DNA from: a virus
DNA length: 64,000 nucleotides
Direction: 5' to 3' (one strand)
IMG/VR virus record: IMGVR_UViG_3300031578_000017
The translations under genes were made by a program, and so were the position numbers. Below, in pieces: positions 8,808-64,000 of the stretch. Below the pieces are notes generated by a model that was given only the letters and a program-made list of their open reading frames with translations, was not told the DNA's origin and ran no database searches. Within the stretch, counting starts at the first letter, position 1. Each line of letters starts with the position of its first letter.

Positions 8808-8891
8808 TTTCTTACCCCTGACTTGGACAACCCCTATTGGTTGCCGCTAAAAGGTATATACATTCTTGCACATCTTTAAGCAAATCTGTTT

Positions 8892-9636: not shown

Positions 9637-9644
9637 TGCTCCTC

Positions 9645-9959: not shown

Positions 9960-10090
9960 GTTGCTCTCCTTTAAACCCTTAACCCATAGGTATTAAACAC
10001 TCTACACCGTTTCAACACAAGTCTTAAGTTAAATTGTTTGAAATTAAGGTCACGCCAGCAGCCTAATCGAAGCGACTAGGGGCAGTAAAC

Positions 10091-27300: not shown

Positions 27301-28365
27301 CTACGTCTTACATTCGTCTATACATTTATCAATTAATTCTCTGCCAGTATCTTTTTCTTTGAAAATATTTTTATGAACCCAATAATCACACGCGACTTTT
27401 AAATCTGTAAAAGATATCAGTTTCATTATATCTTTCCAAGTATCTTTTGAAATATCTCTCATCATATACCATTCAAGTAAATAGTATATCTGTTGTAGAT
27501 CTTTAAATTCAGTATAATATCTATTTTTATTATCACACAATACATCGCAACAATTTTCTATAGCAGATAGATAAATACCTAATTCTACTCCTTGTCTAGC
27601 AAACTCGAATGTTGGAAGATTAGGTAAATCTATATAATTTTTCAATAAATTTTTAGATTTTTCAATTCCTTCGAATCCATTAAAGTTTTCATAAACATGC
27701 ATTGAATCCGACATATGAAAATATTTACCAACATTTATGTTCAAACAATTCGCTATAATTTCTTGAATGACTGTAAATTCATATACATTAATCGCACTCA
27801 TACCAAAAATTAGATCATTTGAGCGAATCACAACACAACAATCCAATACATTATTTCTAACCATAAAATGTATCCAATTAGAACAACAATAATCACGAGT
27901 ATTATCAATCGTACATTCTTTAGCAGGATCCCAAATAGATATAACGGCTTGTCTAGAATTGAAATCTTTAAGTAATTGCTTTACCACAAATTTGATTTGA
28001 TCTACTTCTATAATTTCATTTTTATCATTAAATCCTTTCCAATTTCTAAGACGTGGGCCATATCCGGCACGCCAATCTAACCCATTATCACTGAAATCTT
28101 TAGCTCTAGGAAGAAATTTAGATAAAAAATCCATATCATTTCTTCCAGCTAACACCCATAAAGTCTCAGCCAAAGTCGCAAATGGATTATTTCCTCTTTT
28201 CGGGAAAAGCAATGTTCTTTTTCGGGGATTATTGATTTGGATAAAACAAGGATGAAGTTCTAATGTTTTTTTCTCTCTTACAATTATTTCACTTCCTTCT
28301 GTTAATAATTTTTTAAGAATCAGTTTGATACTTTCCTGTAAATTTTCCGCAATTATTGTAAACAT
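27301..28365 (-). CDS. thymidylate-synthase-fold pyrimidine hydroxymethylase (dUMP type)
   Basis: YGPRL, DQI, SRQAVISIWDP, catalytic C (YCCSN), RSNDLIFGMSAIN, SMHVYE. Confidence 0.8.
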   Translation of the reverse strand: MFTIIAENLQESIKLILKKLLTEGSEIIVREKKTLELHPCFIQINNPRKRTLLFPKRGNNPFATLAETLWVLAGRNDMDFLSKFLPRAKDFSDNGLDWRAGYGPRLRNWKGFNDKNEIIEVDQIKFVVKQLLKDFNSRQAVISIWDPAKECTIDNTRDYCCSNWIHFMVRNNVLDCCVVIRSNDLIFGMSAINVYEFTVIQEIIANCLNINVGKYFHMSDSMHVYENFNGFEGIEKSKNLLKNYIDLPNLPTFEFARQGVELGIYLSAIENCCDVLCDNKNRYYTEFKDLQQIYYLLEWYMMRDISKDTWKDIMKLISFTDLKVACDYWVHKNIFKEKDTGRELIDKCIDECKT

Positions 28366-28377
28366 TTTATTCCTTTC

Positions 28378-28869
28378 TTATCTCTGATTGTAATTAACAA
28401 TTCTACAAACTTGAACTCTACTAATTCCATATATTCTCATTAATTCACATTGTTTATAAATTTTATTTTCAAATAAATCTCTAATTTCAGAAACAAATTT
28501 GTTAGAAATTTTACACATAGGATTCAATTCATTACTTAACCTACTACATCTTCCCTTGTTTTTCTTATCTTGCATATTATCTAACGATGTTCCAATAAAT
28601 AAATGTTCTGGATTAAAACATTTAGGATTATCACACTTATGACAAACTAACGATTTGGAATCTAAATCGAATCCCAACCAAAGATGAGCGGCAAAACGAT
28701 GGATTCTTAAAACTTTTCCATCAAAATAATATGCTCCATAACCAGAAGAAAAACATACTCCAGTCCAATACCAACAATCTTGAAATTTACCATCAGGAGA
28801 AGGTTTAATAATTCTATTATCAAAAATCTTATAAAGATCCTGTAGTGATTCAGCCACTATGGTTTGCAT
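28378..28869 (-). CDS. HNH homing endonuclease (HNH_3 type)
   Basis: CWYWTG...GYG...IHR...VCHKCDNPKCFNPEHLFIGT..DNM.DK..KGR plus C-terminal HTH. Confidence 0.9.
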   Translation of the reverse strand: MQTIVAESLQDLYKIFDNRIIKPSPDGKFQDCWYWTGVCFSSGYGAYYFDGKVLRIHRFAAHLWLGFDLDSKSLVCHKCDNPKCFNPEHLFIGTSLDNMQDKKNKGRCSRLSNELNPMCKISNKFVSEIRDLFENKIYKQCELMRIYGISRVQVCRIVNYNQR

Positions 28870-30122
28870 TTGTCCTCCCTCACGCATTTGAACCTTGGGA
28901 ATCTTAATGACCCATCTGGGGTCACTGAATCGTACTCAATCTCAATCACCTTGCCTACATATAACTTTTGTGCCTCTTCTAAAGATACACGCTCATCATC
29001 TTTCAAACCACTCCCAACATTAATTGTTACTCCTTCACGTTCTACAATAAATGCTCCCAACTTGCCAGCATACTTACCTCTTCCTTCTTGAATTTCTGTC
29101 ACCTTTAGATCTATTGTGTCTGAAGGTTTCATCTTGATCCAGCTAACGCTACGTTTAAATTCATATTCACCTTCTAGATCTTTTATAATTATTCCTTCAA
29201 AACCTTCACCAACACAGCTATCATAATATGCCATCAATTGTTCTTCATTATAACACTTTACTCCGACAACTATGAATACACGCTTAGATTCTAATTCTGT
29301 TATTGTACATAATTCATCAAGATAGCTAGTTCTGTTTGTCTGTGTTAATGTTGTAGCTTGTCTTACAAAGTGATGCATTGGCATCCAATCAAACACATTA
29401 AAATTCAAACCTTTTGGTTCTACATCAAATTTCCTACGACACTGTTGCATAATTCCACGGAAATCATCACCTCTTGGACCAATAACTTCTCCATCAAACA
29501 TCTTAGGTTCTTTGTGTGCTAACTGTAGAAGTTCTTTATCAAAACAACTAAAATTCATAAACTGTTTTCCATTACGTGAATAATATGTGACACTATTTTC
29601 TTGTGGTTCTACTAGAGCCACTACTCGTACTCCATCATACTTCGCTTGTACAAGACAAGGATATTTTACACGTTTCAAAAACTTCGATGGTTGGGCAAGT
29701 TGAATTTCAAATTCAGGAATAAGTTTGGGGAAAACTTTGTTTACAATTCCCTCAGCTACTCCACATTTTAAATCTTTCTTGAGAATCTTATAAAATACTT
29801 CTTGTTCACTTTCTATCATAGCACTTGACAACAATCTAATTCTATTTCTAGCTGCATCACCCGTCACTTCACGTTTCATCAACGCATCGAGCAAATCAAA
29901 CATAGCTTCATATCTTTGTTGTTCAGTAGTACATACTTTTCCAAAATCTAATGGTTCTACAAACTCAAACTGTTTTATCCCAAAGACTTTAAATGGATCA
30001 AGAGTATAATTTAGAATTTTCTTCAGTTCTTCCGTACCGTTAGCCGCAAGTATGGCTTGCTTGGCAATGGTAGAGGTAATCTCTGAACATTGCCTTAGTG
30101 TCTCTGACGGTTGTAGTGGCAT
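28857..30122 (-). CDS. ATP-dependent DNA ligase
   Basis: KYDGVR, FDGE, FNVFD, EGIIIK, WIKMK, LRFPRF. Confidence 0.95.
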   Translation of the reverse strand: MPLQPSETLRQCSEITSTIAKQAILAANGTEELKKILNYTLDPFKVFGIKQFEFVEPLDFGKVCTTEQQRYEAMFDLLDALMKREVTGDAARNRIRLLSSAMIESEQEVFYKILKKDLKCGVAEGIVNKVFPKLIPEFEIQLAQPSKFLKRVKYPCLVQAKYDGVRVVALVEPQENSVTYYSRNGKQFMNFSCFDKELLQLAHKEPKMFDGEVIGPRGDDFRGIMQQCRRKFDVEPKGLNFNVFDWMPMHHFVRQATTLTQTNRTSYLDELCTITELESKRVFIVVGVKCYNEEQLMAYYDSCVGEGFEGIIIKDLEGEYEFKRSVSWIKMKPSDTIDLKVTEIQEGRGKYAGKLGAFIVEREGVTINVGSGLKDDERVSLEEAQKLYVGKVIEIEYDSVTPDGSLRFPRFKCVREDKCKP

Positions 30123-30186
30123 GGTTGCCCCCTTATGCACCTAACCTATTAACCAGTCTATTTAGCTTCTATGCTAATCTTTTGAT

Positions 30187-30846
30187 TTAAAAAGGTTTAT
30201 AGTTTGAATCAGTATTACTTCCAGCCCAATTCTTTAAACAATCTTCTATTGCTTGTGTTGATAATTCAAAATGTGAAAATAAATTCTTATAATGTTCTAT
30301 ATTTCCAAATTCACAAATATGATATTTTATTTTTCTAATTTTCAGAAATTCAATTGATTCATCACAATTTTCTTCCCATATTTTACCCAATTCTAAAAAT
30401 TTATCTGAAGAATTATATATCCTGTCGTCATACTTTTTCAACCACATTGGTCTATTTTTTCTATCTACATATATTTGTGCATGACTATAAATACTCGCAC
30501 TCTTTACCCAAGATTCTACTGGACGTTTACAAATTATAATTTCTGAAAACAAAATTAATTCTTTTCTAAGAAAACAAAGTTGAGGTTGTTTGTACATAAC
30601 TTCTGTATCGTCAGTTTTATCTTCTTTCCAAATTTCAGGAAGAGCTTGAAATAGATTTATCAACAAATAACCTTCAATTCCTCTATGGTAAGCATAAGAA
30701 ATTGCTTCTGCTTCATTAGTAGACCATGAACTATTAAAATTTGTATTATGACAATATATCTTTGGTTTCATATCTTTTCCATATTTGTTAAACATATTGA
30801 GCAGATATTTTGTTCCACTTCTAGGCATTCCACAAATTAATTTCAT
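30187..30846 (-). CDS. sulfotransferase-like P-loop protein
   Basis: ICGMPRSGTKYL (5'-PSB-like), KQP, RPVESWVKS (3'-PB-like). Confidence 0.6.
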   Translation of the reverse strand: MKLICGMPRSGTKYLLNMFNKYGKDMKPKIYCHNTNFNSSWSTNEAEAISYAYHRGIEGYLLINLFQALPEIWKEDKTDDTEVMYKQPQLCFLRKELILFSEIIICKRPVESWVKSASIYSHAQIYVDRKNRPMWLKKYDDRIYNSSDKFLELGKIWEENCDESIEFLKIRKIKYHICEFGNIEHYKNLFSHFELSTQAIEDCLKNWAGSNTDSNYKPF

Positions 30847-31508
30847 CGTTTTATCCCTACATAATTCAATCCCCACCCAAATGTTAGATGTTCTCCATTT
30901 TTATTAGAAGGAGGTGAATAAAATACTGTTATTTTTTCTAATTTATCAAACAAAGATACTAATCCTTCATGAGTAGATCTCCAATAATCACCTCCCATAT
31001 TTTGTCCTTCTCCACATGTAGGATGGTAAGGCCAACAGGCTGGAATACAACAAAACAATATTCCATCTTTAACCAATATTCTCTGTATCTCTTCTGCAGC
31101 TTTCCAAAATTTTGGTATATGTTCTAATACAGAAAAACAAGAAATAAAATCAAAACTTTCATTTGGAATTATTTTTGCATCACAAATGTCTACTCTATAA
31201 TCTATATCAACACGAGGATCGTATAAATCTAATACCTTAGAATTATAAAAAAATCTACCATTCCATCTATAACCAATTTCTAAATTTCTTTTATTTTTAA
31301 ATTTTTCTTTAAGATAAGACATTAGAAAATTGTGTTTCTTCCAATCTGTATCAAAATTAGGATGCCAATGTAACACAAAATTATCTTGCATATTTTGCGA
31401 TACATCTTCAGGAGCACCAATTTTTATTTCATCTACTAACATAACCACCTCGTTCTTTATATGTCTCTGTGATTTCAAATTCAGAATCTGTACTAAATCG
31501 TGACACAT
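30843..31508 (-). CDS. class I SAM methyltransferase (type 11)
   Basis: LEIG, SFDFISCFSVLEHI, EIQRILVKDGIL, YHP..DYWR; start uncertain. Confidence 0.8.
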   Translation of the reverse strand: MCHDLVQILNLKSQRHIKNEVVMLVDEIKIGAPEDVSQNMQDNFVLHWHPNFDTDWKKHNFLMSYLKEKFKNKRNLEIGYRWNGRFFYNSKVLDLYDPRVDIDYRVDICDAKIIPNESFDFISCFSVLEHIPKFWKAAEEIQRILVKDGILFCCIPACWPYHPTCGEGQNMGGDYWRSTHEGLVSLFDKLEKITVFYSPPSNKNGEHLTFGWGLNYVGIKR

Positions 31509-32199
31509 TAATTTTCATTGCATCTTTTGGATCTTTGAATATAGCAATAAACATTTGATATCTACAAGGATGTGGAGCTATTGTATCGTATGTCCATACA
31601 ATATTAGGATATGGACTTACCCAACTCATTATGTCTTTTACATTGAAGACCCATAACTGTTTCGCAAAATTTTCTATATTTGGAAACTGTGTAAGTTTTT
31701 CATGATCTATGTCTGTACAAAAGAATAAACATTTTCTTGCTTTTGCAAGTGCCGCTTCTACACATTGACGTGGATCTTTAACATATTCTAACACATTCAT
31801 AATGCTAACATAATCATATTCTCCACAATCTGGAACTATTTTTCCATCTTCAAATCCGCCTATAATTGCCTTGAGTTTATTGCCATACAATCCTCTATAC
31901 ATTCTATAATCTTCACTATAATCTTCTAATGGTTTGCCATATAGTAAAGGATTTACTGATTCGTTTTTATTTGTCCAATCTGGATGTACATCTAATCCAA
32001 ATGCTTCTCCACCACTCTGTTCAAATCTATGCATGAAAACTCCATTACAACATCCAATATCAAGATAAGTTAAACCTTTTGTATTCATTGGTACAATTCT
32101 GTTCCAACATGCATCGTTCCAAAATTGTACTTGTCTCACAAAAGGATCATCATTTTTAAATAATCTCTTACCATTCGTATCGTAACCACACTGAAACAT
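31429..32199 (-). CDS. class I SAM methyltransferase
   Basis: YLDIGCCNG, FGLD, YDYVSIMNVLEYV. Confidence 0.75.
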   Translation of the reverse strand: MFQCGYDTNGKRLFKNDDPFVRQVQFWNDACWNRIVPMNTKGLTYLDIGCCNGVFMHRFEQSGGEAFGLDVHPDWTNKNESVNPLLYGKPLEDYSEDYRMYRGLYGNKLKAIIGGFEDGKIVPDCGEYDYVSIMNVLEYVKDPRQCVEAALAKARKCLFFCTDIDHEKLTQFPNIENFAKQLWVFNVKDIMSWVSPYPNIVWTYDTIAPHPCRYQMFIAIFKDPKDAMKINVSRFSTDSEFEITETYKERGGYVSR

Positions 32200-32208
32200 T
32201 TTTATCTC

Positions 32209-32547
32209 CTAGTTCTCTTTTTCTGCCTTAATTGCAGATTCATCGGTTTTCCAATTTAAATCACCATTATCTTTTTTATATAGATGGTTCCATTCATGTC
32301 TTAGTAATTCCTTATTTCTTTCTAAACCTTGATCTAATATAACAATTCTTCTTTCCTCAACAGGATCTTCACACCAAGCTGATGCATCAGCTCTAACAAC
32401 CCAAACTAATGTTTTCTTTTTTAAAGGATATTTCTTCATCAATTTTTCTATCTCTGGTAATAACTCTCTAGTATTGGATGGATTTACTGTTTCTTCACAG
32501 TATCCAAATAAAGAAATAAAACATAAGAATAATATTATCTTTTTCAT
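32209..32547 (-). CDS. exported zincin-like protein
   Basis: signal peptide; LRHEWNH (HExxH) plus distal E. Confidence 0.55.
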   Translation of the reverse strand: MKKIILFLCFISLFGYCEETVNPSNTRELLPEIEKLMKKYPLKKKTLVWVVRADASAWCEDPVEERRIVILDQGLERNKELLRHEWNHLYKKDNGDLNWKTDESAIKAEKEN

Positions 32548-34931
32548 TTTATCAACACCATGCGAATCTCACCTGGAGAATATTCTCTGCCATTAAACGG
32601 TTGACAATATCTAAATCCAATCTTTCTGCTTATATTTACTAACGTCTTTGAATCTAAACAAAGGTTATGAAAATTCGCAGCATAAGTCTGTCCACTAAAT
32701 AATTTCAAATTTGCCCACATACTTGGACTTAAATCTCCATAATATTTCCTTATATTTGTTTCGTCGTCTGGATGTTCTTTTGAAATTTTATTATTTCTAT
32801 ACATGTTTGCAATATATTCAAGATTAGGAGTGCGAATAAATAATTTTCCATTGGTACAAAGTAAACGATACCAATCTTCTAAAACTGGAATCAATTTTAA
32901 CCAACCCAAATGTTCTATAACATGATTGGCTAATATTTCTGAAACTTTTTGATCGCCTATAGGAATCTTTTTACTAATATCCCAATTTATTTCTAAATGA
33001 GGTAGTTGCCCACGTTCATCTATACTTTGTATATCTACATGTATGTATCCTTTATTTGGATCAAACCCAGAACCAAATTCCAAACGATAAGGTGGAAAAA
33101 TTGGTACATTAAATTCTCTTTCACAATATACAGGCATTTCGTTTATAAATTTATCTTTCCATTTTTCTTTCAAAAGGTAAACATTGTTTTGATCAAATTC
33201 TTTTTCTAATCCATACGTTATTCCTTCATAATGAATAAATTCTATACGATTATCGTAAATAACTGCTTTGTTTTTTTCAAAACACATACGCAAACAAAAA
33301 TCTGTATCTTCAGCAGATTGATTAAATCTTTCATCAAAACCGTTTAAATCTATCCAATCTTTTTTACGCACAGCTATGAATGCACCTGTGACACAATCAT
33401 AATTTCTTCTTTCACAAGCATACTTATAATTTCTTGGAAGATGTTTATAGATATGCCTAAAATGTTTACCATCACAAACACATCCAGCATGTTGAATTGT
33501 CATGTTTGGATACAATAACTTAGCTCCCACTATACCAACTTTTTCATCTTCCAGATTTTCCCATACATACTTTAACCAATCTTTAGTTAATAATTCTGTA
33601 TCGTTATTTAATAGAATTATTGTCTCACCTTTTGCTTCTTTTACTGCTCTATTACAATTCTTTGTAAATCCTACTTTCTCTTCATAATATTTTACATTGC
33701 ATAGCTTGTCAAATATTTTTAATCTATTTCTTGTATCTTCTTTAGAAGAATCATCTGCTATTATTATTTCAGCACAACTCATCCACTCGCTTTGCATCAA
33801 AATTGACATTATGCATCTATAAGTATACTCGTATTTATTGTACGACGGGACTATAATTGAAAAATTTGGTCTAATGTTTCCATAAAATTCTTTGATCTTT
33901 GTATGTATAAGTTTGCTATCTAAATTTTTCATATCATCAATACATTCTTGTATATTTTTAGGTTCAAATTCAGATGGTATAGGATTCAAATGGTGGATGC
34001 CTGAGGTATGTCCATCATGTTGTGTAGCTAAAGGTATCCACCTTTGAGGCAATCTCTTGTTTGGATCTGTGATACCAAATATAGAAAACACTGGCTTATT
34101 CAAAGCGACACCTAAATGCATAATTCCAGAATCTATACAGATTAATCCTTCAGAATGTTGGATAATTGCAGCTATTATACGAATATTATTATGCTTCAAC
34201 ATTGGTATATTCAATTGTGAAAACTTTTGTTCACCTCTTCCAACCTCTATAATATTATAATCTTTAAACATTTTTTCTGCCATTATTTTCTTTATAAGAT
34301 CTTCCCAATTGTGCCATCTTCTTGTCAACCAATCACATTCTGTATGAATGACAAAAAATTTTTTATGATTTATTTTATTCAATATCATGCTTGCTTCTTT
34401 TAATTCTTGTTCTGTTAAATAAAGTTCCGGTTTATAATCATCTACATCTATTCCAATTCTTTCAGCATAAGCCTTTACTACGTGTACACTTGGATTAAAT
34501 TCATAAGATAAAAAATATGTTCTATCAAATTTAGAATAATCTTCTTTTATGGGAATAATATTGTCAACGTTTGGATTATTTTGTAACATCTGTGGATGAT
34601 CTGTAGATACAGTTATATGAATGTCCTTATATATTTCTTTTATCTTTTTAATGATAGGCGTTACAAGTAACACATCTCCTCTTGCACCATATCTAACTAG
34701 ACATATTTTTATATTTGAATCTTTTTTCTCTTCATAAAGTTTTGGAATATCTTTAATAAAATCTTCTATTTTAAATCTACAAAATGATTTCTTTAAATCA
34801 AGCAAATGTTTTTCTAAACAGATATTGAATTTTTCACCCATAATATTTTTCCCTACAAATAAAACATGGGCTGACGTTCTGTCAACCCATGCTTTTGAAT
34901 AATCAAAATTATTACGCTGAATGTGCAACAA
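32544..34931 (-). CDS. tri-domain glycan enzyme: GT9 (heptosyltransferase-like) + GT2 + SAM methyltransferase
   Basis: RYGARGDVLLVTP and IDSGIMHLGVAL..P..SIFG (GT9); IIVPSYN, DDSS, LLNNDT, VTGAF, EDTDFCLR (GT2); LEFGSG, NHVIEHL, WYRLL (MTase). Confidence 0.85.
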   Translation of the reverse strand: MLHIQRNNFDYSKAWVDRTSAHVLFVGKNIMGEKFNICLEKHLLDLKKSFCRFKIEDFIKDIPKLYEEKKDSNIKICLVRYGARGDVLLVTPIIKKIKEIYKDIHITVSTDHPQMLQNNPNVDNIIPIKEDYSKFDRTYFLSYEFNPSVHVVKAYAERIGIDVDDYKPELYLTEQELKEASMILNKINHKKFFVIHTECDWLTRRWHNWEDLIKKIMAEKMFKDYNIIEVGRGEQKFSQLNIPMLKHNNIRIIAAIIQHSEGLICIDSGIMHLGVALNKPVFSIFGITDPNKRLPQRWIPLATQHDGHTSGIHHLNPIPSEFEPKNIQECIDDMKNLDSKLIHTKIKEFYGNIRPNFSIIVPSYNKYEYTYRCIMSILMQSEWMSCAEIIIADDSSKEDTRNRLKIFDKLCNVKYYEEKVGFTKNCNRAVKEAKGETIILLNNDTELLTKDWLKYVWENLEDEKVGIVGAKLLYPNMTIQHAGCVCDGKHFRHIYKHLPRNYKYACERRNYDCVTGAFIAVRKKDWIDLNGFDERFNQSAEDTDFCLRMCFEKNKAVIYDNRIEFIHYEGITYGLEKEFDQNNVYLLKEKWKDKFINEMPVYCEREFNVPIFPPYRLEFGSGFDPNKGYIHVDIQSIDERGQLPHLEINWDISKKIPIGDQKVSEILANHVIEHLGWLKLIPVLEDWYRLLCTNGKLFIRTPNLEYIANMYRNNKISKEHPDDETNIRKYYGDLSPSMWANLKLFSGQTYAANFHNLCLDSKTLVNISRKIGFRYCQPFNGREYSPGEIRMVLIK

Positions 34932-35217
34932 CTTTGCGAGGCGGACCCCACAGACCGGCAGACATCAGATAACAAACAGAGCTCGCTTCAATGTAGAAGT
35001 GAACCATGCCATTTTGATCTGCCACAAGACCGGCAGTCTTGGCAGTCTGACTAACTGCATCACCTTCTGCGCCAGTTAACGGAGCCATCGCCGCAATTGT
35101 AGCAAGACCAGTCGCAGCATGAGCAAGAGCGTTTGCATATGTATCGTACACGTTCACAGTCTTGCCTTCCATAAATTTGTTCGGACCAACAAAAACCTGA
35201 ACGAGAACCTTAGCCAT
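34912..35217 (-). CDS. small Ala/Thr/Gly-rich protein, virion-like
   Basis: 101 aa, AAGGAG RBS, codon usage GC-richer than neighbours. Confidence 0.7.
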   Translation of the reverse strand: MAKVLVQVFVGPNKFMEGKTVNVYDTYANALAHAATGLATIAAMAPLTGAEGDAVSQTAKTAGLVADQNGMVHFYIEASSVCYLMSAGLWGPPRKVVAHSA

Positions 35218-35288
35218 TTTACATCTCCTTTTCTGAAAAAATGAGGGTTGACATGTCCCCTCAACAAAGAATATATCATTCTATAATT

Positions 35289-36380
35289 CTAAACTAAAGT
35301 AAATCTCATATTAAAGCTATCAAATACTTTTTCACAATTCTTAATCCATTTCATATTGTAATAAATTGGATTATCAAGATCATTATGTTCAGCCCATTTT
35401 CTTATATTGCTGACTGCATTATATAAATTATTATCAAATTCAAACATAATGTTTTTAAACAATTTAGAACCATCTGTCCTATATGTTCTGATATCTTTTG
35501 GCATATCATATCTTGCCTTTACTGGAACATCCAAAATTCCAGCTATTTGCAATCCTAATTCAGACATCCTATAATTACAACCGACTACATTGTATATTTT
35601 CCCCTTGCTAAATTTGTTATATTCATTTTCAGACATCATCACGATTTTCATATACAGGCGCACAGCGTCTGATACGTGAACTAAAGGTCTCCAATTTTCA
35701 CCACCACCCCACAATTCTATTTTCTTGAATCTTACAGCATTAGTAACCATTGTGTTGATAGCAAGATCTAATCTCATCCTAGGTGATACACCATACAGTG
35801 TTCCTTTCCTTAATATAACTGGTTTTAATCCTTTCTTATTTAGAATATATTTTTCGCCCATAGCTTTGGATAAAGCGTAGTTTGATTTAGGACTTATTGG
35901 ACCATCTTCTATACAAAGATTTTCTTCCATGTCTCCATATACAGAAGCGGAACTAGCAAACACAAATCTCGGTACACCAAACTCGACACACCTATCAACG
36001 ATCATTTCTGTTTGTAAACAATTCATGTCTTTATTTGCTATTGCATCATAATCTGCCATTGGATCATTAGATAAACCTGCTAAATGAATAACAATTTTTG
36101 TCTGGCTCAACAGCTTTGCCATAAGAGTTCTGTTAGCAGTAAAAGATCTAACAGAAGTCTTATATAAATTTTCAGGATGAGCACATTTCTTATGAACTTC
36201 ATTGAATCCAAACAATCCTTGATCAACACAAATAAGATTTTCTCTTGTGAAGTGTTTGTTTTGTAATTCTTGGATTAGGAGCGATCCAACAAATCCCGCT
36301 CCGCCAGTTACTATTATCTTCTCTCTTTTTTCTTTCATTTGTTCTGTGTCTCCCATACTCCAGCGCCGTATGTATCCCAA
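35289..36380 (-). CDS. NAD-dependent nucleotide-sugar epimerase/dehydratase (extended SDR)
   Basis: TGGAGFVGS, HLAGLSNDP, ASSASVYG, YALSK, RPLVHVSD. Confidence 0.9.
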   Translation of the reverse strand: MGYIRRWSMGDTEQMKEKREKIIVTGGAGFVGSLLIQELQNKHFTRENLICVDQGLFGFNEVHKKCAHPENLYKTSVRSFTANRTLMAKLLSQTKIVIHLAGLSNDPMADYDAIANKDMNCLQTEMIVDRCVEFGVPRFVFASSASVYGDMEENLCIEDGPISPKSNYALSKAMGEKYILNKKGLKPVILRKGTLYGVSPRMRLDLAINTMVTNAVRFKKIELWGGGENWRPLVHVSDAVRLYMKIVMMSENEYNKFSKGKIYNVVGCNYRMSELGLQIAGILDVPVKARYDMPKDIRTYRTDGSKLFKNIMFEFDNNLYNAVSNIRKWAEHNDLDNPIYYNMKWIKNCEKVFDSFNMRFTLV

Positions 36381-36829
36381 GGAATTCTGAATTCATCTAA
36401 TCCAAACGCTTTATTCTCCCCCTTATATAGTGTGCTTGCGCCAGAAATAAGAATAGTGCCAATGTCTGCCTTCCAACCATGGAATACACCTGTAGGAACT
36501 GTAATTAATTGCAATCTTTGATCTGTAACATTTATAATTTCCATATTTTCAAATGTCTTCGAATCTGGTCTGTCGTCTACAAAAACGAATTTACCATTTC
36601 CTTGAATGATACAAAAATAATCAACAAGCCTATCATGTTTATGAAATGCTCTAACCGCCTTTGTCTTGTTTGCAACAAGATAAATTTGTTTCAAACTTAT
36701 CTTATTAAAATATTCATCACACCAATCGTCACGCATAAGCTCAACAAGAATTCCTCGATCATCTACATTTACATGTAGATCTCGAACGTGTATCCCATCA
36801 ATTTTACCTACCTTAAAAGTTGTAGTCAT
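36335..36829 (-). CDS. rmlC: dTDP-4-dehydrorhamnose 3,5-epimerase family (cupin)
   Basis: DDRGILVEL, VRAFHKH, FVDDRPDSKTF, VPTGVFHGW. Confidence 0.85.
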   Translation of the reverse strand: MTTTFKVGKIDGIHVRDLHVNVDDRGILVELMRDDWCDEYFNKISLKQIYLVANKTKAVRAFHKHDRLVDYFCIIQGNGKFVFVDDRPDSKTFENMEIINVTDQRLQLITVPTGVFHGWKADIGTILISGASTLYKGENKAFGLDEFRIPWDTYGAGVWETQNK

Positions 36830-37607
36830 TGCCCAAAATTCCTTTCATTTTTGTCAAATCAAAACTTGTATCGCGAGGAACATCTGAACCTTCTTGTATC
36901 TTGTTTGGTTTTACATCTGGTTTGATATTCTGTGCTAATTCATAAAAACTTTTTCTTTCTGTACCAACATGCAAAATACCACTCCACAATTTATAAAGCA
37001 AGGAACAATGTACTATCAATGGAACTATTTTTTTAACCGTATCTCTTGAAGAATATTTATCTTCATACGCAAAATCGTAAGGCCAAGTTGGTCCACAGAA
37101 ACTTGTGCGTATAACTCTATGTCCGCTAGATAAAAATATTCCTTCAGCGTACCATTTTGTCTTAGCATAAAATCCTAAAGGATTTGGAACATCTCCTTCA
37201 CAATAATTTCCAACAGTACCATCAAACACATAATCTGTTGAAATATAAATTATCTTTACATCTTTAGCTTCTCTACAAACTACAGACGGTGATTCACAGT
37301 TGACAATATAGGTTTTGTTACGTCCATATTTCTTGAATCTTTCTTGAGTATACGATGCAGCATGGATTACAATATCAAGATTGTATTTGAAAAATGAATT
37401 CGATAAATCTATTGGTGAATTAAGATCACAGTCTGAATGATATGGGAACATAACCATCATATTATCATTTTCTAATATAGTTCCAAATGGATATTTAGTT
37501 TCTCTCAAATTAAAGTTTCTAACAAAATAATTCTTTATTTCCGTTCCTAATAAACCTGTACCTCCTAAAATACCAATCCTCATGTCTTTATTTCTCCTCC
37601 AATGCAA
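36813..37607 (-). CDS. rmlD: dTDP-4-dehydrorhamnose reductase family
   Basis: GGTGLLG, HAASYT, ISTDYVFDG, YAKTK. Confidence 0.85.
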   Translation of the reverse strand: MHWRRNKDMRIGILGGTGLLGTEIKNYFVRNFNLRETKYPFGTILENDNMMVMFPYHSDCDLNSPIDLSNSFFKYNLDIVIHAASYTQERFKKYGRNKTYIVNCESPSVVCREAKDVKIIYISTDYVFDGTVGNYCEGDVPNPLGFYAKTKWYAEGIFLSSGHRVIRTSFCGPTWPYDFAYEDKYSSRDTVKKIVPLIVHCSLLYKLWSGILHVGTERKSFYELAQNIKPDVKPNKIQEGSDVPRDTSFDLTKMKGILGNDYNF

Positions 37608-38566
37608 CCGCTTACATTACCGATAACTTTAACACCCAATCTACGTAATACCGTTGGAATATTAACTAATTTAATTTCCAGATCACTATTAATTCTCATG
37701 ACTTTTTTAACTTTGATTTGATTTTGTTGTATTGCTTTATCTACCAAACCCTTTAGCAATTCTTTTTCCCAATCTTCATACATTTCTTCTTTAGTTCTAA
37801 TCCTAGCCAATTTGTAAGACATCATTATATTTTTTCGCTTTTTTTTCAATCTATCTTTCCACTTATCTATCGTACAATTATCTATTGCATCTGCTAAATT
37901 TTTCTTTCCATCTAATACCTTCTTGGCTGCTGCTTCACCAAATTTGCATTTTATAAGTTTCATATTTGTTTCATCGACATCCAGACAACCTGGAATAAAA
38001 TCGCTATCTTCACCCATTAATGCTTTCATTCTGATCAATTGTTTTGGATTCACACCAAACTCTTCCATAATATCACGTTCTGTTTTAAAATGATCCATAA
38101 TTGGCCTATAGATTCTAATATCTTCTTTCTTTAAAACTTGATAAAAATCTTTATCGTTTGAAATTATTACTACTCTATGCCCTTGATTCTTTAATGACCA
38201 CGCTAAATATCCCATAACATCATCTGCTTCAATACCTTTAGCAATACACTGATTGATCCCGAATATTTCAAGATACTTACGCGCAGAATCTAGTTCGGCA
38301 AAATAATCTTTCATATCTATATATTTTCGATGTTTCTTGTAAAGAGGATATAATTTTCTACGATAATAGGATCCACTTACGTCCCAACAAATAGCTATCC
38401 TATCGAATTCTGTTTTCTTTACTAACGCATCTAGTGTGCGAAGTAATCCAAAGATAACAGTGGTGGGAATACCCATTGAAGTTTTGAGTAACCCACCCCT
38501 GCTCTCTTTAAATTGAGAATAGATGGCGAACGACATATTGTTGCCATCTAAAATTGCCACTTTCAT
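37580..38566 (-). CDS. 5'-3' exonuclease / RNase H (PolI N-terminal-like)
   Basis: ILDGNN, YRRKLYPLYKKHR, GIEADD, SNDKDFYQ, LMGEDSDFIPG. Confidence 0.9.
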   Translation of the reverse strand: MKVAILDGNNMSFAIYSQFKESRGGLLKTSMGIPTTVIFGLLRTLDALVKKTEFDRIAICWDVSGSYYRRKLYPLYKKHRKYIDMKDYFAELDSARKYLEIFGINQCIAKGIEADDVMGYLAWSLKNQGHRVVIISNDKDFYQVLKKEDIRIYRPIMDHFKTERDIMEEFGVNPKQLIRMKALMGEDSDFIPGCLDVDETNMKLIKCKFGEAAAKKVLDGKKNLADAIDNCTIDKWKDRLKKKRKNIMMSYKLARIRTKEEMYEDWEKELLKGLVDKAIQQNQIKVKKVMRINSDLEIKLVNIPTVLRRLGVKVIGNVSGCIGGEIKT

Positions 38567-47781: not shown

Positions 47782-49959
47782 CTAATCGACATCATCACCT
47801 ATTTCTTTTGCTTCAGTTGTATCGTCACTGTCTTCTTCAGAAGCTGGTAAATCACCACCCTCTTTTATTTTATCTATTATGAAATCATATATACTTTTTT
47901 CACCATTTTCTTTTGAAGATTTTTCAAATTCTTCTATGAAACTGATAGCAGAATTTTTTCCTACTCCTAGTTGCATTTTATCTTCCTTAAGACCTGTAAT
48001 TGAGTATGTCTTACCTTCCTTAACTATTACTCCCATCAACAATCCTGTACTTAATAAATTTCTTGCAAGATCGAATCCTTTACTAAAAATTAAATCTGCT
48101 TCACAAATTCTAAATGGTGGAGCAACTTTATTTTTCTTAATCGTAAGTTTAGTTGTACATCCTATTGATTTACCTTTAGTTCCTATCTCACCAGTTCTAC
48201 GTACATCTACACGAACCGATGCATAGAATTTCAAAGCTCTTCCACCAGAAGTTGTTTCAGGTGAATTGTGAACTATGACACCATTTGGTCCACCGACAAT
48301 ATAGTTGTGATTATCTTCAATTTCTAAATCATATTTATATCGTTTTCTACCTTTGGTATGTCTATAATTTATTTCTTTTTTAAGAATTTCTACTGGAATG
48401 TTTTCATTCACAATGTCTATTTCACACTTATTTTCTAATTTAGGAATATTGCAAAATTTTGAATGTAATTTATAATGCATACATTCAGGCACATATTTGG
48501 ATATTGCTTTATGAAAAGAAAATGTTTGTTCACCACCATTAAAATACAATCCTTTTCCAATTTTTACCTGTGGTTTTTTAATTCCTAAAGATTCTATCCA
48601 ATTTGCTGCACAATTTAATTGTTCTTCATTCATCAATTTAGAACAAATTGATGTTCTACCAGCACCCCACAATTCTTTAGTTAGTACATAAGTTCCATCG
48701 TCTAAATACCAAATAGTCAAAGCTAATAAACCACATTCTTTAAATCCAAACCAATCGTTTTTAAATTTATAATTCCCATTACAAATTTCTTTTCTATATT
48801 TTTCTAATCTGATATCTGCATTAGTATCATATCTAAAATTTGTTGTATTGTTTTCTTGCTTTACTTCTCCACCTAAAATTGGTTTAAATAAATTTGCTTT
48901 CCATCTAATATATCCTTCTTGTTCTTTACAATGACCCAACCTAAATCCAGATTTATGATAACTAATTTTTCTTAAAGAACCGTCTCCCAACATAGAACCT
49001 ATAAGTAAATCTTTAAAATATTTACAATCTTTATGTGAATCATAACTTAACAAAAAATCTCCAACTCTAAAATCACCAGCATTTTTTTCTATATATTTTC
49101 CATTGTCACATAAAATCATTTTATGATTAGATGTTACTCTAAATTTAGAATATCCACATTTATTTGGAGCAGTTGTTTTGAATTCTAAAAAATTATCTTC
49201 TACACCATTATTAAACCATCCAATTATGTTTTTAGATTCTATAGTATTTGATTCTTTATTTAAAGATAATACCTTAACGTCTTTTTTCTGATTTACTATT
49301 TTACCGATTTTTTCAGTAGTACCATCTGCTAAACAAATTCGCGAATCATAATCAAAACATCCCCATCGAACTCCAATCTTTTCACGTATTTGATTGATGA
49401 ATATGGCGGTACATTCTGTGCGTGAAATTATTGAAGTCAGTTTTCGCATTGCCTGTGACATTAATCTTGCTTGTAACCCCATATGTGACTCGCCATACTC
49501 ACCTTCTAATTCTGCCCTTGGTACTAATGAAGATACTGAATCTACCACAACTATATCAATTACACCACTTTCAATAAAATGCTGTGTCAATGTTAAACAT
49601 TCTTCGGCATGAGATGGTTGACTTAAAAGTAACTTATCTAAATCCACACCTAATCGTTTACACCAAGCTGGATCTAAAGAATGTTCCATATCACCATACC
49701 ATGCCCAAGCTCCCTGTTTTTGTGCTTGTGCAATCGTAGTCAAAGCAGCAGTTGTCTTACCTGAAGATTCAGGTCCATAAATTTCTATGATACGTCCTTT
49801 AGGAAAACCTCCTACACCTATAGCTAAATCAAGTTGAGGTATTCCTGTTTTCCAAGCTGGTACTATCTTAATAGCCTTTTCTGTCAATTTCATTACTATC
49901 GAATTCTCACTGAACTTTTCGCGAGTCTTCGCAATTAAGTCGTCTAACGAAATTCCCAC
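47782..49959 (-). CDS. recA: RecA recombinase (intein-containing)
   Basis: [55 protein letters not shown]. Confidence 0.95.
48265..49359 (-). mobile_element. 365-aa intein with LAGLIDADG homing endonuclease in RecA
   Basis: begins CFDYDSRI after GVRWG, ends VIVHN before S; [11 protein letters not shown] and IWYLDDG motifs. Confidence 0.95.
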
Positions 49960-55345: not shown

Positions 55346-55658
55346 CTAAAGATCTATTAACCAAACTCCTCAAAGAAGAAGATGCTTTAAATTTCACAGA
55401 ATAAGAAATTGGTATTTCTACCATTATTCCTTTGAAATTTTTAAACTTAGCACGTTTCCTCTTACATATATAAAACCTGCCGAACTTTCTTATATTTACT
55501 ACCCCATTTGTCTCTAGATTCTTTTTAATACCATTCATTATATAATCTATGATTGTCTTTACTTCTTGTACTGGTAATTTCATAATCCTAGATAATTCAG
55601 ATACCAATTCTGGATCAGTCTTAGATCCTAACCCTTTTTCTATCTTATAATTTTTCAC
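55308..55658 (-). CDS. HU/IHF-like DNA-binding protein
   Basis: VNIRKFGRF...KFKASSSLR. Confidence 0.85.
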   Translation of the reverse strand: MKNYKIEKGLGSKTDPELVSELSRIMKLPVQEVKTIIDYIMNGIKKNLETNGVVNIRKFGRFYICKRKRAKFKNFKGIMVEIPISYSVKFKASSSLRSLVNRSLVVNKGKALREKS

Positions 55659-62062: not shown

Positions 62063-63988
<1,926 letters not shown>

Positions 63989-64000
63989 TTGTCCTTTTTT

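Follow-up and report, generated by a model that had tools for sequence, protein, structure and literature searches.

We found that an uncultured soil phage carries, on the minus strand between positions 30187 and 37607, a nine-gene island encoding a pathway for a methylated, possibly sulfated glycan. The window analysed is a stretch of 64,000 nucleotides. Our best explanation, to which we assign a probability of roughly 45%, is that this pathway serves the cytoplasmic O-glycosylation of the phage's own particle proteins. ORF positions, together with Pfam and structural matches, bore out the nine genes and family assignments of the original prediction, and the claim of a phage-encoded glycan pathway is well supported. 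The order on the minus strand is an RmlD-like reductase, an RmlC-like cupin, an extended SDR, a 101-aa protein, a GT9-GT2-methyltransferase fusion, a mini-zincin, two methyltransferases and a sulfotransferase-fold protein; the earlier labels, which put the extended SDR first and RmlD third, are swapped. The same order was found in at least four further phage lineages (L001/L002, L003, L010 and L009), whose fusion proteins are 74, 47, 45 and 40% identical to the window copy, respectively. In every lineage whose contig extends far enough, the island lies between a 5'-3' exonuclease and DNA ligase. This shared arrangement is far beyond chance. Accessory tailoring genes differ by lineage, consisting of extra GT2s or of an SDR, cupin and DegT set. 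In homolog alignments, the catalytic and cofactor motifs of the SDR, the cupin, the sulfotransferase-like protein and each of the three domains of the fusion are invariant.

The genes had been described as contiguous and overlapping. ATGA stop/start overlaps among the enzyme genes, with no minus-strand terminators between them, suggest that these are co-transcribed. The 101-aa gene is non-overlapping and is set apart by its own Shine-Dalgarno sequence and terminator, both of them strong. These overlaps and the called homologs were used to choose the likely true starts of the RmlD, SDR, fusion and sulfotransferase genes. RmlA and a clear RmlB were reported missing from the window, and our scan of ORFs of at least 145 aa agreed, with no NTP_transferase and no dehydratase-type SDR. 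As the island contains no nucleotidyltransferase, obvious priming enzyme, transporter or ligase, calling it self-contained was too strong. No transmembrane segment was predicted in any of its enzymes, all of which are predicted to be soluble.

The first three genes are predicted to remodel a nucleotide-sugar. The RmlD-like NDP-4-keto-sugar reductase (36813..37607, minus strand; Pfam RmlD_sub_bind, E = 1e-23) probably starts at ATG 37583, which gives 256 aa and an ATGA overlap with the exonuclease stop. It matches TIGR01214 (E = 5e-24) far below the equivalog cut-off, and contains GxxGxxG. Its best solved relative is 2ggs, an RmlD homolog from Sulfolobus (E = 2.5e-20), to which it aligns at STDYVFDG and YxxxK. 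The cupin (36335..36829, minus strand; Pfam dTDP_sugar_isom, E = 2e-11) is a predicted 3-, 5- or 3,5-epimerase of an NDP-4-keto-sugar. Its five-sequence profile matched RmlC 3,5-epimerases in the PDB at 4.5e-6 and Campylobacter jejuni GDP-heptose epimerases at 3.7e-5, with ketoisomerases above 0.01, and H63, K64, H65 and Y135 are invariant across five lineages. The extended SDR (35289..36380, minus strand; Pfam Epimerase, E = 3.5e-37) probably starts at ATG 36338, giving 349 aa and an ATGA overlap with the cupin stop; FASSASxYG, YxxxK and GVSPRMRxDL are invariant among its homologs. The TDE dehydratase pair was not found in this protein, which carries the epimerase/C4-oxidase motif ASSASVYG instead. 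It is predicted to be an NDP-sugar 4-epimerase or C4-dehydrogenase, not a dehydratase. Its best PDB match is 6vo6 (E = 6.5e-24), which we take to be C. jejuni Cj1427, followed by UDP-GlcNAc and UDP-GlcA 4-epimerases. Given this motif and kinship, the triad may take a plentiful NDP-hexose or NDP-heptose of the host through oxidation, epimerisation and reduction, and the product could be a sugar other than the rhamnose given earlier as an example.

The fusion gene (32544..34931, minus strand) was assigned by Pfam (Glyco_transf_9 and Glycos_transf_2), NCBIfam and phrog_6636, and its called start at ATG 34841 gives 765 aa. The domains span approximately 34053-34706 (GT9), 33147-33875 (GT2) and 32544-33089 (methyltransferase). 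The C-terminus is a class-I methyltransferase (phrog_6636) whose E/GxGxG motif is invariant in 11 homologs. Other invariant motifs are R..GD and DSG..H in GT9, DD.S, NDT and EDTD in GT2, and E.G.G and ANHVxEH in the methyltransferase. The architecture is common to homologs P0002-P0013 (34-74% identity), and GT2 relatives fused to sulfotransferase domains were also found. The nearest cellular homolog, P0012, adjoins an RgpF/WbsX rhamnan-synthesis gene and PAPS-synthesis genes.

Downstream lie further tailoring genes. Two class-I SAM methyltransferases, one of 256 aa (31429..32199, minus strand; Methyltransf_23, E = 3e-8, and Methyltransf_11) and one of 221 aa or shorter (30843..31508, minus strand; Methyltransf_11, E = 8.6e-8, and Methyltransf_23), precede the sulfotransferase-fold protein (30187..30876, minus strand; probable ATG 30846, 219 aa, ATGA overlap with the methyltransferase stop). 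The last has no Pfam match itself; its L003 homolog (32% identical) matches Sulfotransfer_1 at 26.2 bits against a cut-off of 22. PRSGT (5'-PSB-like) and R118...S126 are invariant, and the top 31 PDB neighbours of its model (pLDDT only 60) are all sulfotransferases, led by TPST2 and HS 3-OST (Foldseek E = 3e-4). The exported HExxH protein noted earlier, a 112-aa mini-zincin (32209..32547, minus strand), does have an N-terminal hydrophobic signal-like segment and an HEWNH motif, with SprT-like, M78, M48 and M56 proteins as Atlas structural neighbours. It is missing from the L003, L009 and L010 islands and is probably a passenger gene.

The 101-aa gene (34912..35217, minus strand) is present in every island version and encodes a predicted beta-sandwich (AF2 pLDDT 90.9). 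Collagen-like GXT and poly-Ser tails are classic O-glycan acceptors, and among 68 homologs of this gene some carry such tails at the C-terminus (GXT in P0159 and P0164; poly-Ser in P0180, P0186 and P0189). In another phage, such homologs have GT2 and Methyltransf_24 genes close by. The tailspike N-domains of P22 (Z = 5.6) and Sf6 (Z = 5.3) are the folds nearest to the model, which in BFVD and AFDB also matches the N-terminal ends of tail fibres, spikes and depolymerases from phages; Atlas features agree. We consider the protein a candidate virion-anchored acceptor or whisker base. Against this, each structural match is weak when taken alone (Z below 8, Foldseek E 0.02-0.3), the beta-sandwich is a common fold, and the window's own copy lacks a Ser/Thr-rich tail.

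This gene also differs from its neighbours in composition, with a GC of 0.49 and a GC3 of 0.39 in the window (neighbours' GC3 0.16-0.27) and a GC3 of 0.39-0.52 across lineages (neighbours 0.16-0.31). An AGGAG ribosome-binding site precedes it, and directly 3' of it lies an intrinsic terminator, a hairpin with a U-run (34852..34895, minus strand; -23.5 kcal/mol, z -5.1), as good as which none of 200 shuffles was. L001, L003, L009 and L010 each have an equivalent hairpin whose stem sequence differs. The high GC3, the ribosome-binding site and the strong lineage-specific terminators suggest that the gene is expressed separately and, apparently, highly. The high GC3 could alternatively reflect import from GC-rich phages.

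A second possible glycan acceptor is encoded at 62063..64000 (minus strand), a collagen-like fibre with a Gly-rich C-terminal domain (Pfam Collagen, 3e-19; Gly_rich_2). Its translation contains about 65 GXY triplets, mostly GPT, GAT, GIT and GET. The GXT collagen-like protein BclA of Bacillus anthracis bears an O-glycan with L-rhamnose and a 2-O-methylated cap (PMC6222408). The complete, distantly related phage G001 and phage G006 have no collagen-like gene, indicating that collagen is not a general partner.

The original prediction named the virion, host LPS and DNA as possible targets. The anchor-like 101-aa protein with its tailed homologs and the collagen-like fibre of the same genome lead us to favour virion protein. 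On this reading, the island would share its transcription with the replication genes, and its products would build glycans in the cytoplasm and attach them to proteins of the phage particle itself. By homology, the three translationally coupled enzymes would remodel a host nucleotide-sugar: the SDR would oxidise C4 or act as a 4-epimerase, the cupin would epimerise C3 and/or C5 of the 4-keto intermediate, and the RmlD-like enzyme would reduce C4, yielding an L-configured or otherwise epimerised sugar. For the sugar to be L-rhamnose, dTDP-4-keto-6-deoxyglucose would have to come from the host. The GT9-like (GT-B) and GT2 (GT-A) domains would add two sugars successively, and the C-terminal methyltransferase of the fusion would cap the terminal one. 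The two free-standing methyltransferases and a PAPS-type sulfotransferase would complete the decoration. The acceptors would be Ser/Thr residues of phage proteins, mainly the 101-aa protein and/or the Thr-rich collagen-like fibre, and the virion would thus carry glycan-bearing whiskers or fibres. Further points against this reading are that no enzyme attaching the first sugar to protein is known, and that the island sits in a replication and nucleotide-metabolism block near a predicted dUMP hydroxymethylase, the layout of known DNA-glycosylation clusters.

DNA is the main rival target, and a serious one, though we rate it less likely than virion protein. Two genes from the island lies a thymidylate-synthase homolog (27301..28365, minus strand; best PDB match MilA at E = 7.6e-23, compared with 7e-14 for ThyA) that aligns end to end with SPO1 gp29 at 37% identity. 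Judged by published rules for the signature residues (PMC13326640), it is a predicted dUMP hydroxymethylase, with the catalytic Cys present, L143 changed to Asp, and D169 and N177 kept. Such an enzyme would make 5-hydroxymethyl-dUMP for phage DNA, on which the GT9-like or GT2 domain would glycosylate 5-hydroxymethyluracil as in base J; the second glycosyltransferase would extend the glycan, and the methyltransferases and sulfotransferase would tailor it, shielding the DNA from host nucleases. The position between exonuclease and ligase, hydroxymethylase and RNR genes, in lineages whose contig reaches there, fits this scheme, as do the soluble enzymes and lineage-variable tailoring genes, the latter suiting an arms race with restriction systems. 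There are also parallels: T4 b-gt adjoins gene 42, RB69 and DLP3 have genes of their own for making the NDP-sugar used in DNA arabinosylation, and G006, which has a homolog of the small protein, encodes 5-HMUDK, a dNMP kinase, a ThyA homolog, Dam and a GT2 consecutively next to ligase. A similar layout was described by Pyle et al., who showed that DNA is decorated with mono- to trisaccharides, heptose among them, by phage GT-A (TarP/JGT-like) and GT-B enzymes encoded beside ThyS or 5mYOX; epimerases and secondary glycosyltransferases are frequent companions in these clusters.

Several observations argue the other way. The window yielded no dNMP kinase, the only proteins in it with Walker A motifs being SbcC and UvsX, and no 5-HMUDK match was found among the ORFs of the 64-kb window scanned with Pfam. 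Six-base palindromes are avoided (O/E 0.84, mean z -1.13), T-containing sites as much as GC-only ones, at a level close to that of SPO1 and stronger than in T4 (O/E 0.94; one control genome each), which speaks against fully shielded DNA. A cellular enzyme from a polysaccharide cluster shares the complete three-domain architecture of the fusion and is 34% identical to it, suggesting a sugar acceptor. We know of no report of O-methylation or sulfation of DNA-linked glycans. DNA modification also leaves the conserved anchor-like small protein, with its GXT- and poly-Ser-tailed homologs, unexplained, and the complete phage G001, which has a distant GT2-MT-GT9 fusion, lacks a ThyA homolog. A Tet_JBP search of G001 gave no match; none of 14 control genomes matched either, so absence is not demonstrated.

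Conversion of the host envelope is improbable, and host LPS is the weakest of the three targets originally named. Here the enzymes would act at the inner membrane face on a glycan that the host carries on undecaprenyl, such as O-antigen, S-layer glycan, teichoic acid or capsule, and the host would export the capped, methylated or sulfated motif, altering the cell surface to exclude superinfection or to stop progeny being trapped on debris. P0012 lies in a cluster that also holds Bac_transf, Wzy_C, GT4s and CysNC/CysD, GT9 is the LPS heptosyltransferase family, WsaE-type enzymes use lipid-linked chains, and the islands of the closest relatives include the exported protein. However, that protein is missing in three lineages, and the island encodes neither a membrane protein nor a flippase, an ABC transporter, a ligase or a priming transferase. 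The phage also looks lytic, with no integrase seen in 64 kb and a large replication module, and the anchor-like protein is again unexplained. RecU, a DnaE polymerase nearest those of Bacillus and Geobacillus phages and the SPO1-like hydroxymethylase are faint signs that the host may be Gram-positive and lack LPS. Glycosylation of a host protein or soluble metabolite is very improbable: flagellin O-glycosylation is comparable in being cytoplasmic, using soluble glycosyltransferases and often involving rhamnose or methylated sugars, yet such a target explains neither the conserved small protein nor the conserved island position.

The proposal that a three-domain enzyme builds and caps a glycan has exact precedents. 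In PBCV-1, A064R (GT-GT-MT) works with a free methyltransferase, A061L, to assemble the capsid glycan's rhamnose cap and methylate it twice (PMC9614988), and Geobacillus WsaE combines two rhamnosyltransferase activities and a chain-terminating methyltransferase in one protein (PMC3898925). Together with C. jejuni Cj1427/1430/1428, these two systems are the closest analogues of the island.

We found that the glycan island (window 30187-37607, minus strand) sits inside a replication and nucleotide-metabolism block made up of the minus-strand genes at 24995-64000 of this phage contig, which comes from soil metagenomes. The block encodes a DnaE-type polymerase, DnaB, an SNF2 helicase, UvsX with a LAGLIDADG insert, SbcCD, RecU, dUTPase, a 5'-3' exonuclease, an ATP-dependent ligase, a ThyA homolog and a class II RNR. 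The exonuclease (37580-38566, minus strand) flanks the island upstream and the ligase (28857-30140, minus strand) flanks it downstream. In transcription order the island encodes an RmlD-like reductase, an RmlC-like cupin, an extended SDR, a 101-amino-acid protein, a GT9-GT2-methyltransferase fusion, an exported 112-amino-acid HExxH protein, two class-I methyltransferases and a sulfotransferase-fold protein. These results confirm the island as it had been observed in the original prediction; the gene families listed there stand, except that the labels 'extended SDR' and 'RmlD' were swapped, the first gene being RmlD-like and the third the SDR. The reported lack of RmlA and RmlB also held, as there was no nucleotidyltransferase and no dehydratase-type SDR in any scanned window ORF of at least 145 amino acids. 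Counted from the probable true starts, ATGA stop/start overlaps join the exonuclease and RmlD-like genes, the cupin and SDR genes, the fusion and 112-amino-acid genes, and a methyltransferase gene and the sulfotransferase-like gene (coordinates and called homolog lengths). No minus-strand terminators were found between the enzyme genes of the island, no membrane segments were predicted in its enzymes, and sigma-70-like sites were not above chance (61, with 65 expected). No match turned up when the island was compared by megablast with 50,697 phage records. Elsewhere in the block, the UvsX-like recombinase (47782-49959, minus strand) has a LAGLIDADG homing-endonuclease-like interruption at residues ~313-499 (phrog_11023) that is intein-like.

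Exact-protein look-ups of the fusion homologs revealed that the order exonuclease, RmlD-like reductase, cupin, SDR, ~100-amino-acid protein and fusion is kept in four further phage lineages, with fusion identities of 74% (loci L001/L002), 47% (L003), 45% (L010/L011) and 40% (L009). The genes that follow the fusion vary. In the window and L001 they encode the 112-amino-acid protein, two methyltransferases and the sulfotransferase-like protein; in L003 the sulfotransferase-like protein comes directly after the fusion and the two methyltransferases lie beyond the ligase; L009 has two extra GT2 genes; and L010 has a GT2 and a second sugar pathway (SDR, small cupin and DegT aminotransferase). This variation separates a fixed core, made up of the triad of sugar enzymes, the small protein and the fusion, from a tailoring shell that differs between lineages. 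The 112-amino-acid mini-zincin is regarded as a passenger within that shell. A search of IMG/VR with the single fusion sequence found no relatives, and a profile of 11 fusion homologs recovered only fragments and one distant complete phage. A group of phages that is not related to these lineages and has a family-A DNA polymerase (L004/L005/L006/L015, ~63 kb, and L012) possesses an early/replication region that encodes GT2, methyltransferase and GT9 domains, either as one 710-amino-acid fusion or as two adjacent genes, and has neither sugar-synthesis genes nor a ThyA homolog; IMG/VR rates the L015 record as 100% complete.

The first three genes encode the sugar-remodelling triad. The RmlD-like protein scored 84.8 bits against TIGR01214 (equivalog cut-off 224), over profile positions 1-148 of 285 only, and 84 bits against Pfam RmlD_sub_bind (cut-off 27), making it a family member and not an equivalog. 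Its GILGGTGLLG (Rossmann GxxGxxG), ISTDYVFDG and YAKTK (S/T-Y-K triad) motifs align with 2ggs, a short archaeal RmlD homolog to which residues 67-262 of 264 could be aligned, and it is probably the C4 reductase of an NDP-4-keto-sugar. The cupin reached 24.7 bits against TIGR01221 (RmlC), below the equivalog cut-off of 155.75, and 44 bits against Pfam dTDP_sugar_isom (cut-off 27). A profile of five cupins matched RmlC 3,5-epimerases best (E 4.5e-6), then C. jejuni GDP-4-keto-heptose 3- and 3,5-epimerases (E 3.7e-5), with 3,4-ketoisomerases much weaker. In HMMER alignments the invariant H63 (AFHKH) aligns with the RGLH histidine, the invariant Y135 (LYKG) is the candidate tyrosine, and the Lys73 equivalent is not conserved.

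The 363-amino-acid SDR has an invariant FASSASxYG where dehydratases carry TDE and scored 73 bits against TIGR01181 (cut-off 365). The absence of the TDE motif ruled out a rhamnose pathway in which this SDR serves as RmlB. Its best PDB match was 6vo6 (88 bits, E 6.5e-24), titled by its depositors 'Putative sugar-nucleotide epimerase/dehydratease' and which we take to be C. jejuni Cj1427, with UDP-GlcNAc and UDP-GlcA 4-epimerases behind at 72-74 bits. The SDR and 6vo6 have in common the motif SPRMRLDL and an S/T-Y-K triad without the dehydratase pair. The SDR is predicted to be a Cj1427-type C4-dehydrogenase or a true 4-epimerase, two activities that its sequence cannot separate. Previous work demonstrated that Cj1427 oxidises GDP-heptose at C4 and that the 4-keto sugar is taken over first by an RmlC-like epimerase and next by a C4 reductase, the 4-keto product being released and the tightly bound NADH recycled by alpha-ketoglutarate (PMC10680097). 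Since the phage SDR is not a dehydratase and has a probable Cj1427-type relative, two routes both fit, and sequence alone does not decide between them. In route (a) the triad would be self-sufficient, oxidising, epimerising and reducing an NDP-hexose or NDP-heptose that is abundant in the host. Such a pathway would account for the missing RmlA and RmlB and for the strict coupling of the three genes. In route (b) the SDR would be a plain 4-epimerase for a second sugar, and the cupin and RmlD-like protein would finish L-rhamnose from host dTDP-4-keto-6-deoxyglucose; this route agrees with the rhamnan-synthesis gene that adjoins a cellular homolog of the fusion.

The fusion (32544-34931, minus strand) has an architecture that recurs in metagenomic proteins at 34-74% identity. 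Its GT9 domain (PF01075) scored 43.2 bits against a cut-off of 22 and carries the motifs R..GD and DSG..H, with R50/G55/D56 and D237/H242 invariant among 11 homologs; its scores against all NCBIfam heptosyltransferase equivalogs did not exceed 52 bits, far below cut-offs that start at 134. The GT2 domain (PF00535) scored 71 bits (cut-off 23.3), and DD.S, NDT and EDTD are invariant in the alignment of the same 11 homologs, as are E.G.G (E588/G590/G592) and ANHVxEH in the methyltransferase domain. These invariant motifs suggest that all three domains are probably active. A class-I SAM motif I (E/DxGxGxG) and a Methyltransf_11/23 match were found for the fusion C-terminus and for the free 256- and 221-amino-acid proteins, the last of which matched only the C-terminal half of the profiles. 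A 34% identical fusion homolog, P0012, sits in a cellular polysaccharide cluster together with RgpF/WbsX, CysNC and CysD (PAPS synthesis), GT2s, GT4s, a methyltransferase, an initiating Bac_transf and Wzy_C, and several relatives of the GT2 domain, P0074, P0077 and P0088 among them, are fused to sulfotransferase domains. This cluster and these fusions indicate that the fusion family belongs to the synthesis of methylated, sulfated, rhamnose-type glycans. The 'build-and-cap' synthesis that had been proposed for the three-domain enzyme has precedents in PBCV-1 A064R with A061L (PMC9614988) and in Geobacillus WsaE (PMC3898925).

The 229-amino-acid protein of the window had no match to the Pfam sulfotransferase families (PF00685/PF13469). 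Its L003 homolog (32% identity) passed Pfam Sulfotransfer_1 (26.2 bits, cut-off 22), and its L001 homolog scored 18.3 bits against Sulfotransfer_4, below the cut-off. PRSGT (5'-PSB, PxxGTT-like) and R118/S126 (3'-PB Arg...Ser) are invariant in these proteins. The top 31 PDB neighbours in Foldseek were all sulfotransferases (E 3e-4 to 5e-3, TM 0.37-0.47), obtained with a mediocre model (pLDDT 60), and a three-sequence profile gave only noise against the PDB. We therefore call the protein a putative PAPS-dependent sulfotransferase, a designation that rests on the invariant motifs, the Pfam-passing homolog and the fold search.

The key new observation of the analysis is the 101-amino-acid small protein (34912-35217, minus strand). 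It had no match in Pfam or PHROG, and it was found in every version of the island at 41-52% identity. Across five lineages its gene has a GC content of 0.49-0.51 and a GC3 of 0.39-0.52, compared with a GC3 of 0.16-0.31 for its neighbours. An AGGAG ribosome-binding site precedes it, and in the same number of lineages (window 34852-34895, minus strand; L001, L003, L009 and L010) it is followed by a strong hairpin and U-run with a different stem in each (-19.5 to -23.5 kcal/mol, z -4.6 to -5.9, 0 of 200 shuffles as good), whereas a hairpin upstream of the gene was not significant (z -0.13). We infer that the gene is separately terminated and highly expressed; so strong a terminator would imply attenuation or a separate promoter for the fusion gene downstream. 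The two L010 ORFs flanking the 101-amino-acid gene (8786-9058 and 9519-10001) were considered as pathway genes and rejected, being His-Me/HNH endonuclease-like remnants, which suggests homing-endonuclease traffic around the gene in that lineage.

AlphaFold with a 60-sequence alignment predicted the small protein to be a confident beta-sandwich (pLDDT 90.9). In an exhaustive PDB search (VIA-align) the N-terminal particle-binding domains of the P22 gp9 and Sf6 gp14 tailspikes, of the PF09008 Head_binding-like type, ranked top with Z scores of 5.6 and 5.3, a rank they shared with beta-sandwiches of pilins and CBMs. Its BFVD neighbours were tail fibres, tail spikes and depolymerases of 600-1000 amino acids, and in AlphaFold DB it matched large proteins over their initial 80-97 residues, among them a protein with a lambda-like tail-fibre N-terminal domain; the matches in both databases to the N-termini of fibres and spikes had E values of 0.02-0.3. 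Furthermore, Atlas language-model features pointed to the Head_binding and phage_tail_N families. Each match is weak and the theme is consistent, suggesting that the small protein may resemble a tailspike N-terminal anchor. Among 68 homologs, two carry collagen-like GXT repeats (P0159 and P0164) and at least three have long poly-Ser tails (P0180, P0186 and P0189). A further homolog, P0122, is 97% identical to the small protein and is encoded on a contig of ~116 kb. In another phage the small protein occurs in tandem copies, with Methyltransf_24 genes close by and a GT2 gene ~10 kb away.

O-glycans are classically attached to Thr-rich collagen-like repeats and to Ser-rich tails. The genome in the window itself encodes a 640-amino-acid fibre with ~65 GXY triplets, mostly GPT, GAT, GIT and GET; its ORF (62063-64000, minus strand) runs past the window end, and its C-terminal part is extremely Gly-rich (PF21722). 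Our preferred reading is that the island glycosylates proteins of the phage particle in the cytoplasm, to which we assign a probability of about 0.45. Among tailed phages, mycobacteriophages reportedly glycosylate their capsid proteins by means of glycosyltransferases that they encode (Freeman et al. 2023, as cited in PMC11256854). Collagen is not a universal partner of such glycosyltransferase/methyltransferase enzymes, as neither a complete 63-kb phage with a distant GT2-methyltransferase-GT9 fusion (G001) nor a 110-kb phage with a small-protein homolog (G006) had a collagen match. The interpretation in the original prediction, a glycan destined for the virion, the host LPS or the DNA, is partly supported: virion protein is favoured, DNA is a rival, and LPS or the envelope is the weakest of the three.

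That the island instead glycosylates hydroxymethyluracil in the phage DNA is unlikely, and it is the rival with most in its favour. Two genes past the island, beyond the ligase and an HNH endonuclease, lies the ThyA homolog (27301-28365, minus strand), a predicted dUMP hydroxymethylase. Its best PDB match was the CMP hydroxymethylase MilA (E 7.6e-23; true ThyA 7e-14), and its best phage relatives include the dUMP hydroxymethylase SPO1 gp29, to which it is 37% identical and with which it is collinear through the C-terminal extension. In the ThyA family an acidic residue at E. coli L143 is diagnostic of a hydroxymethyl product and Asn at N177 of dUMP, while Asp at D169 sets an enzyme apart from 5-hydroxycytosine synthases (PMC13326640). 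HMMER alignments to ThyA structures and our own alignment (A4) showed that the phage protein keeps the catalytic Cys and has Asp at L143, Asp at D169 and Asn at N177; the Asp at D169 means that it is not a 5-hydroxycytosine synthase. This signature suggests that the phage makes 5-hydroxymethyl-dUMP and probably puts 5-hydroxymethyluracil into its DNA. A second ThyA-fold paralog (55655-56725, minus strand) is degenerate, lacks the catalytic Cys and the RSxD motif in alignment A4, and has no Pfam match. The HNH endonuclease (28378-28887, minus strand) lies between the ligase and the hydroxymethylase, a place occupied in L001 by an 83-amino-acid ORF.

Built on the adjacent hydroxymethylase, the modification could in principle be base-J-like, with O-methyl and sulfate groups on a disaccharide of remodelled (L- or heptose-type) sugar carried by 5-hydroxymethyluracil, a proposal we regard as unlikely. 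To our knowledge such a sulfated glycan would be the first on DNA, and the most elaborate DNA-linked glycan known. Clustering of this kind has precedents: T4 b-gt abuts gene 42, and GT-A/GT-B enzymes encoded next to ThyS or 5mYOX, and accompanied by secondary glycosyltransferases and epimerases, put up to trisaccharides, heptose included, on DNA (Pyle et al., bioRxiv 10.1101/2023.12.21.572611). In addition, G006 has a 5-HMUDK, a dNMP kinase, a ThyA homolog, Dam and a GT2 beside its ligase. This row (L029, G006:C1:92000-110384) runs on one strand as DNA ligase, two small ORFs, 5-hmdU DNA kinase (PF18723, 9e-62), dNMP kinase, ThyA homolog, D12 adenine methyltransferase and GT2, and resembles a thymidine-hypermodification cluster with an attached glycosyltransferase; the 101-amino-acid homolog of G006 lies ~11 kb from it, near Capsule_synth and BNR_2 genes.

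Several observations speak against the DNA reading. No dNMP kinase was found within the 64-kb window, where Walker A motifs occur only in SbcC and UvsX, and no scanned ORF matched 5-HMUDK. The complete phage G001 has no ThyA homolog, so that a hydroxymethylase as universal partner of GT9/GT2/methyltransferase fusions was rejected for the distant family; a Tet_JBP search of G001 also had no match, and since none of 14 control genomes matched either, that search shows nothing. Six-base palindromes are under-represented in the window (O/E 0.84, mean z -1.13, Mann-Whitney p 4e-14), T-containing and GC-only ones equally, a value similar to that of SPO1 (0.85) and a stronger avoidance than in T4 (0.94; one genome each). 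This avoidance suggests that type II restriction can still reach the DNA, in a test that partial modification would escape. GGTACC, GCATGC, CAGCTG, ACGCGT, AGTACT and AGGCCT are absent from the window, and TGGCCA occurs once against 7.7 expected; four-base palindrome avoidance was discarded as an indicator because T4 shows it too. Furthermore, glycosylation of DNA leaves the small protein without a role. Conversion of the host envelope is improbable, the weakest reading, as membrane components, transporters, ligases and priming transferases are all missing from the island, no lysogeny genes were seen in the 64 kb, and RecU, a DnaE closest to those of Geobacillus/Bacillus/Staphylococcus phages and the SPO1-like hydroxymethylase hint at a Gram-positive host and hence no LPS. 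What probability remains belongs to some other acceptor.

Giant viruses of algae and amoebae and a few mycobacteriophages are known to encode host-independent glycosylation, and T-even-like phages and some metagenomic phages to glycosylate DNA. The island is a variant of virus-encoded glycosylation, set apart by the triad, the GT9-GT2-methyltransferase fusion, the putative sulfotransferase and the anchor-like protein. New here would be a lineage of tailed soil phages that encodes its own triad for nucleotide-sugar remodelling, a build-and-cap enzyme that it shares with cellular rhamnan and sulfated-polysaccharide clusters, and a putative sulfotransferase and dedicated small protein whose homologs have collagen-like or poly-Ser tails. 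If the acceptors are particle proteins, the phage would bear a glycan-carrying whisker or fibre, with a bearing on adsorption, soil stability and antigenicity; if the acceptor is DNA, a methylated and sulfated glycan on hydroxymethyluracil would be a new anti-restriction chemistry. Because the module is compact and its enzymes soluble, the question of the acceptor is directly testable by heterologous expression.

Among known systems, phage DNA-glycosylation clusters (T4 gene 42 with a-gt/b-gt, RB69/DLP3 arabinosyl-5hoC and ThyS/5mYOX-linked GT-A/GT-B) similarly place a ThyA-family base-modifying enzyme a few genes from GT-A/GT-B transferases and NDP-sugar enzymes in a replication module, and DNA carrying disaccharides, trisaccharides or heptose has been documented (bioRxiv 10.1101/2023.12.21.572611; PMC13326640). 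The island differs in having no dNMP or DNA kinase in the window, in a genome that avoids palindromes, and in glycosyltransferases that are fused to a methyltransferase, are closest to polysaccharide enzymes and have two further methyltransferases and a putative sulfotransferase alongside. The triad resembles C. jejuni Cj1427/Cj1430/Cj1428 (C4-dehydrogenase, C3/C5-epimerase and C4-reductase; PMC10680097), as both combine a non-dehydratase SDR, an RmlC-like cupin and an SDR reductase in a possible oxidise-epimerise-reduce route that uses an existing NDP-sugar without 6-deoxygenation. The phage cupin profile also matches the C. jejuni GDP-heptose epimerases, and a GT9 (heptosyltransferase-family) domain lies next door, although identity is only ~30% and the phage reductase is RmlD-type, not GDP-fucose-synthase-type.

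The window fibre resembles BclA of the Bacillus anthracis exosporium, a bacterial spore protein, in its Thr-rich collagen-like (GXT) sequence; the BclA O-glycan consists of L-rhamnoses with a 2-O-methylated cap sugar (PMC6222408). WsaE of the Geobacillus stearothermophilus S-layer polyrhamnan (PMC3898925) likewise joins two transferase activities to a chain-terminating methyltransferase domain and uses dTDP-L-rhamnose from RmlABCD, and the cellular homolog P0012 adjoins RgpF/WbsX. The WsaE chain is, however, lipid-linked, exported by an ABC transporter and ligated by WsaB, partners that the phage island lacks. PBCV-1 A064R (PMC9614988) also unites two glycosyltransferase domains with a class-I SAM methyltransferase at the C-terminus of one polypeptide, and the free methyltransferase A061L acts on its terminal sugar, much as the island has stand-alone methyltransferases. 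Soluble, early-expressed enzymes, virus-encoded NDP-sugar enzymes for L-rhamnose-type sugars and, on our preferred reading, assembly and capping of the end of a virion glycan complete the likeness. There is no detectable sequence kinship: A064R has a GT-A (GT34-like) D1 and a D2 of a new family, whereas the island has GT9-like (GT-B) and GT2 domains. PBCV-1 further differs in its eukaryotic algal host and N-linked glycan, and the island has, in addition to what PBCV-1 encodes, a sulfotransferase-fold enzyme and a dedicated small protein.
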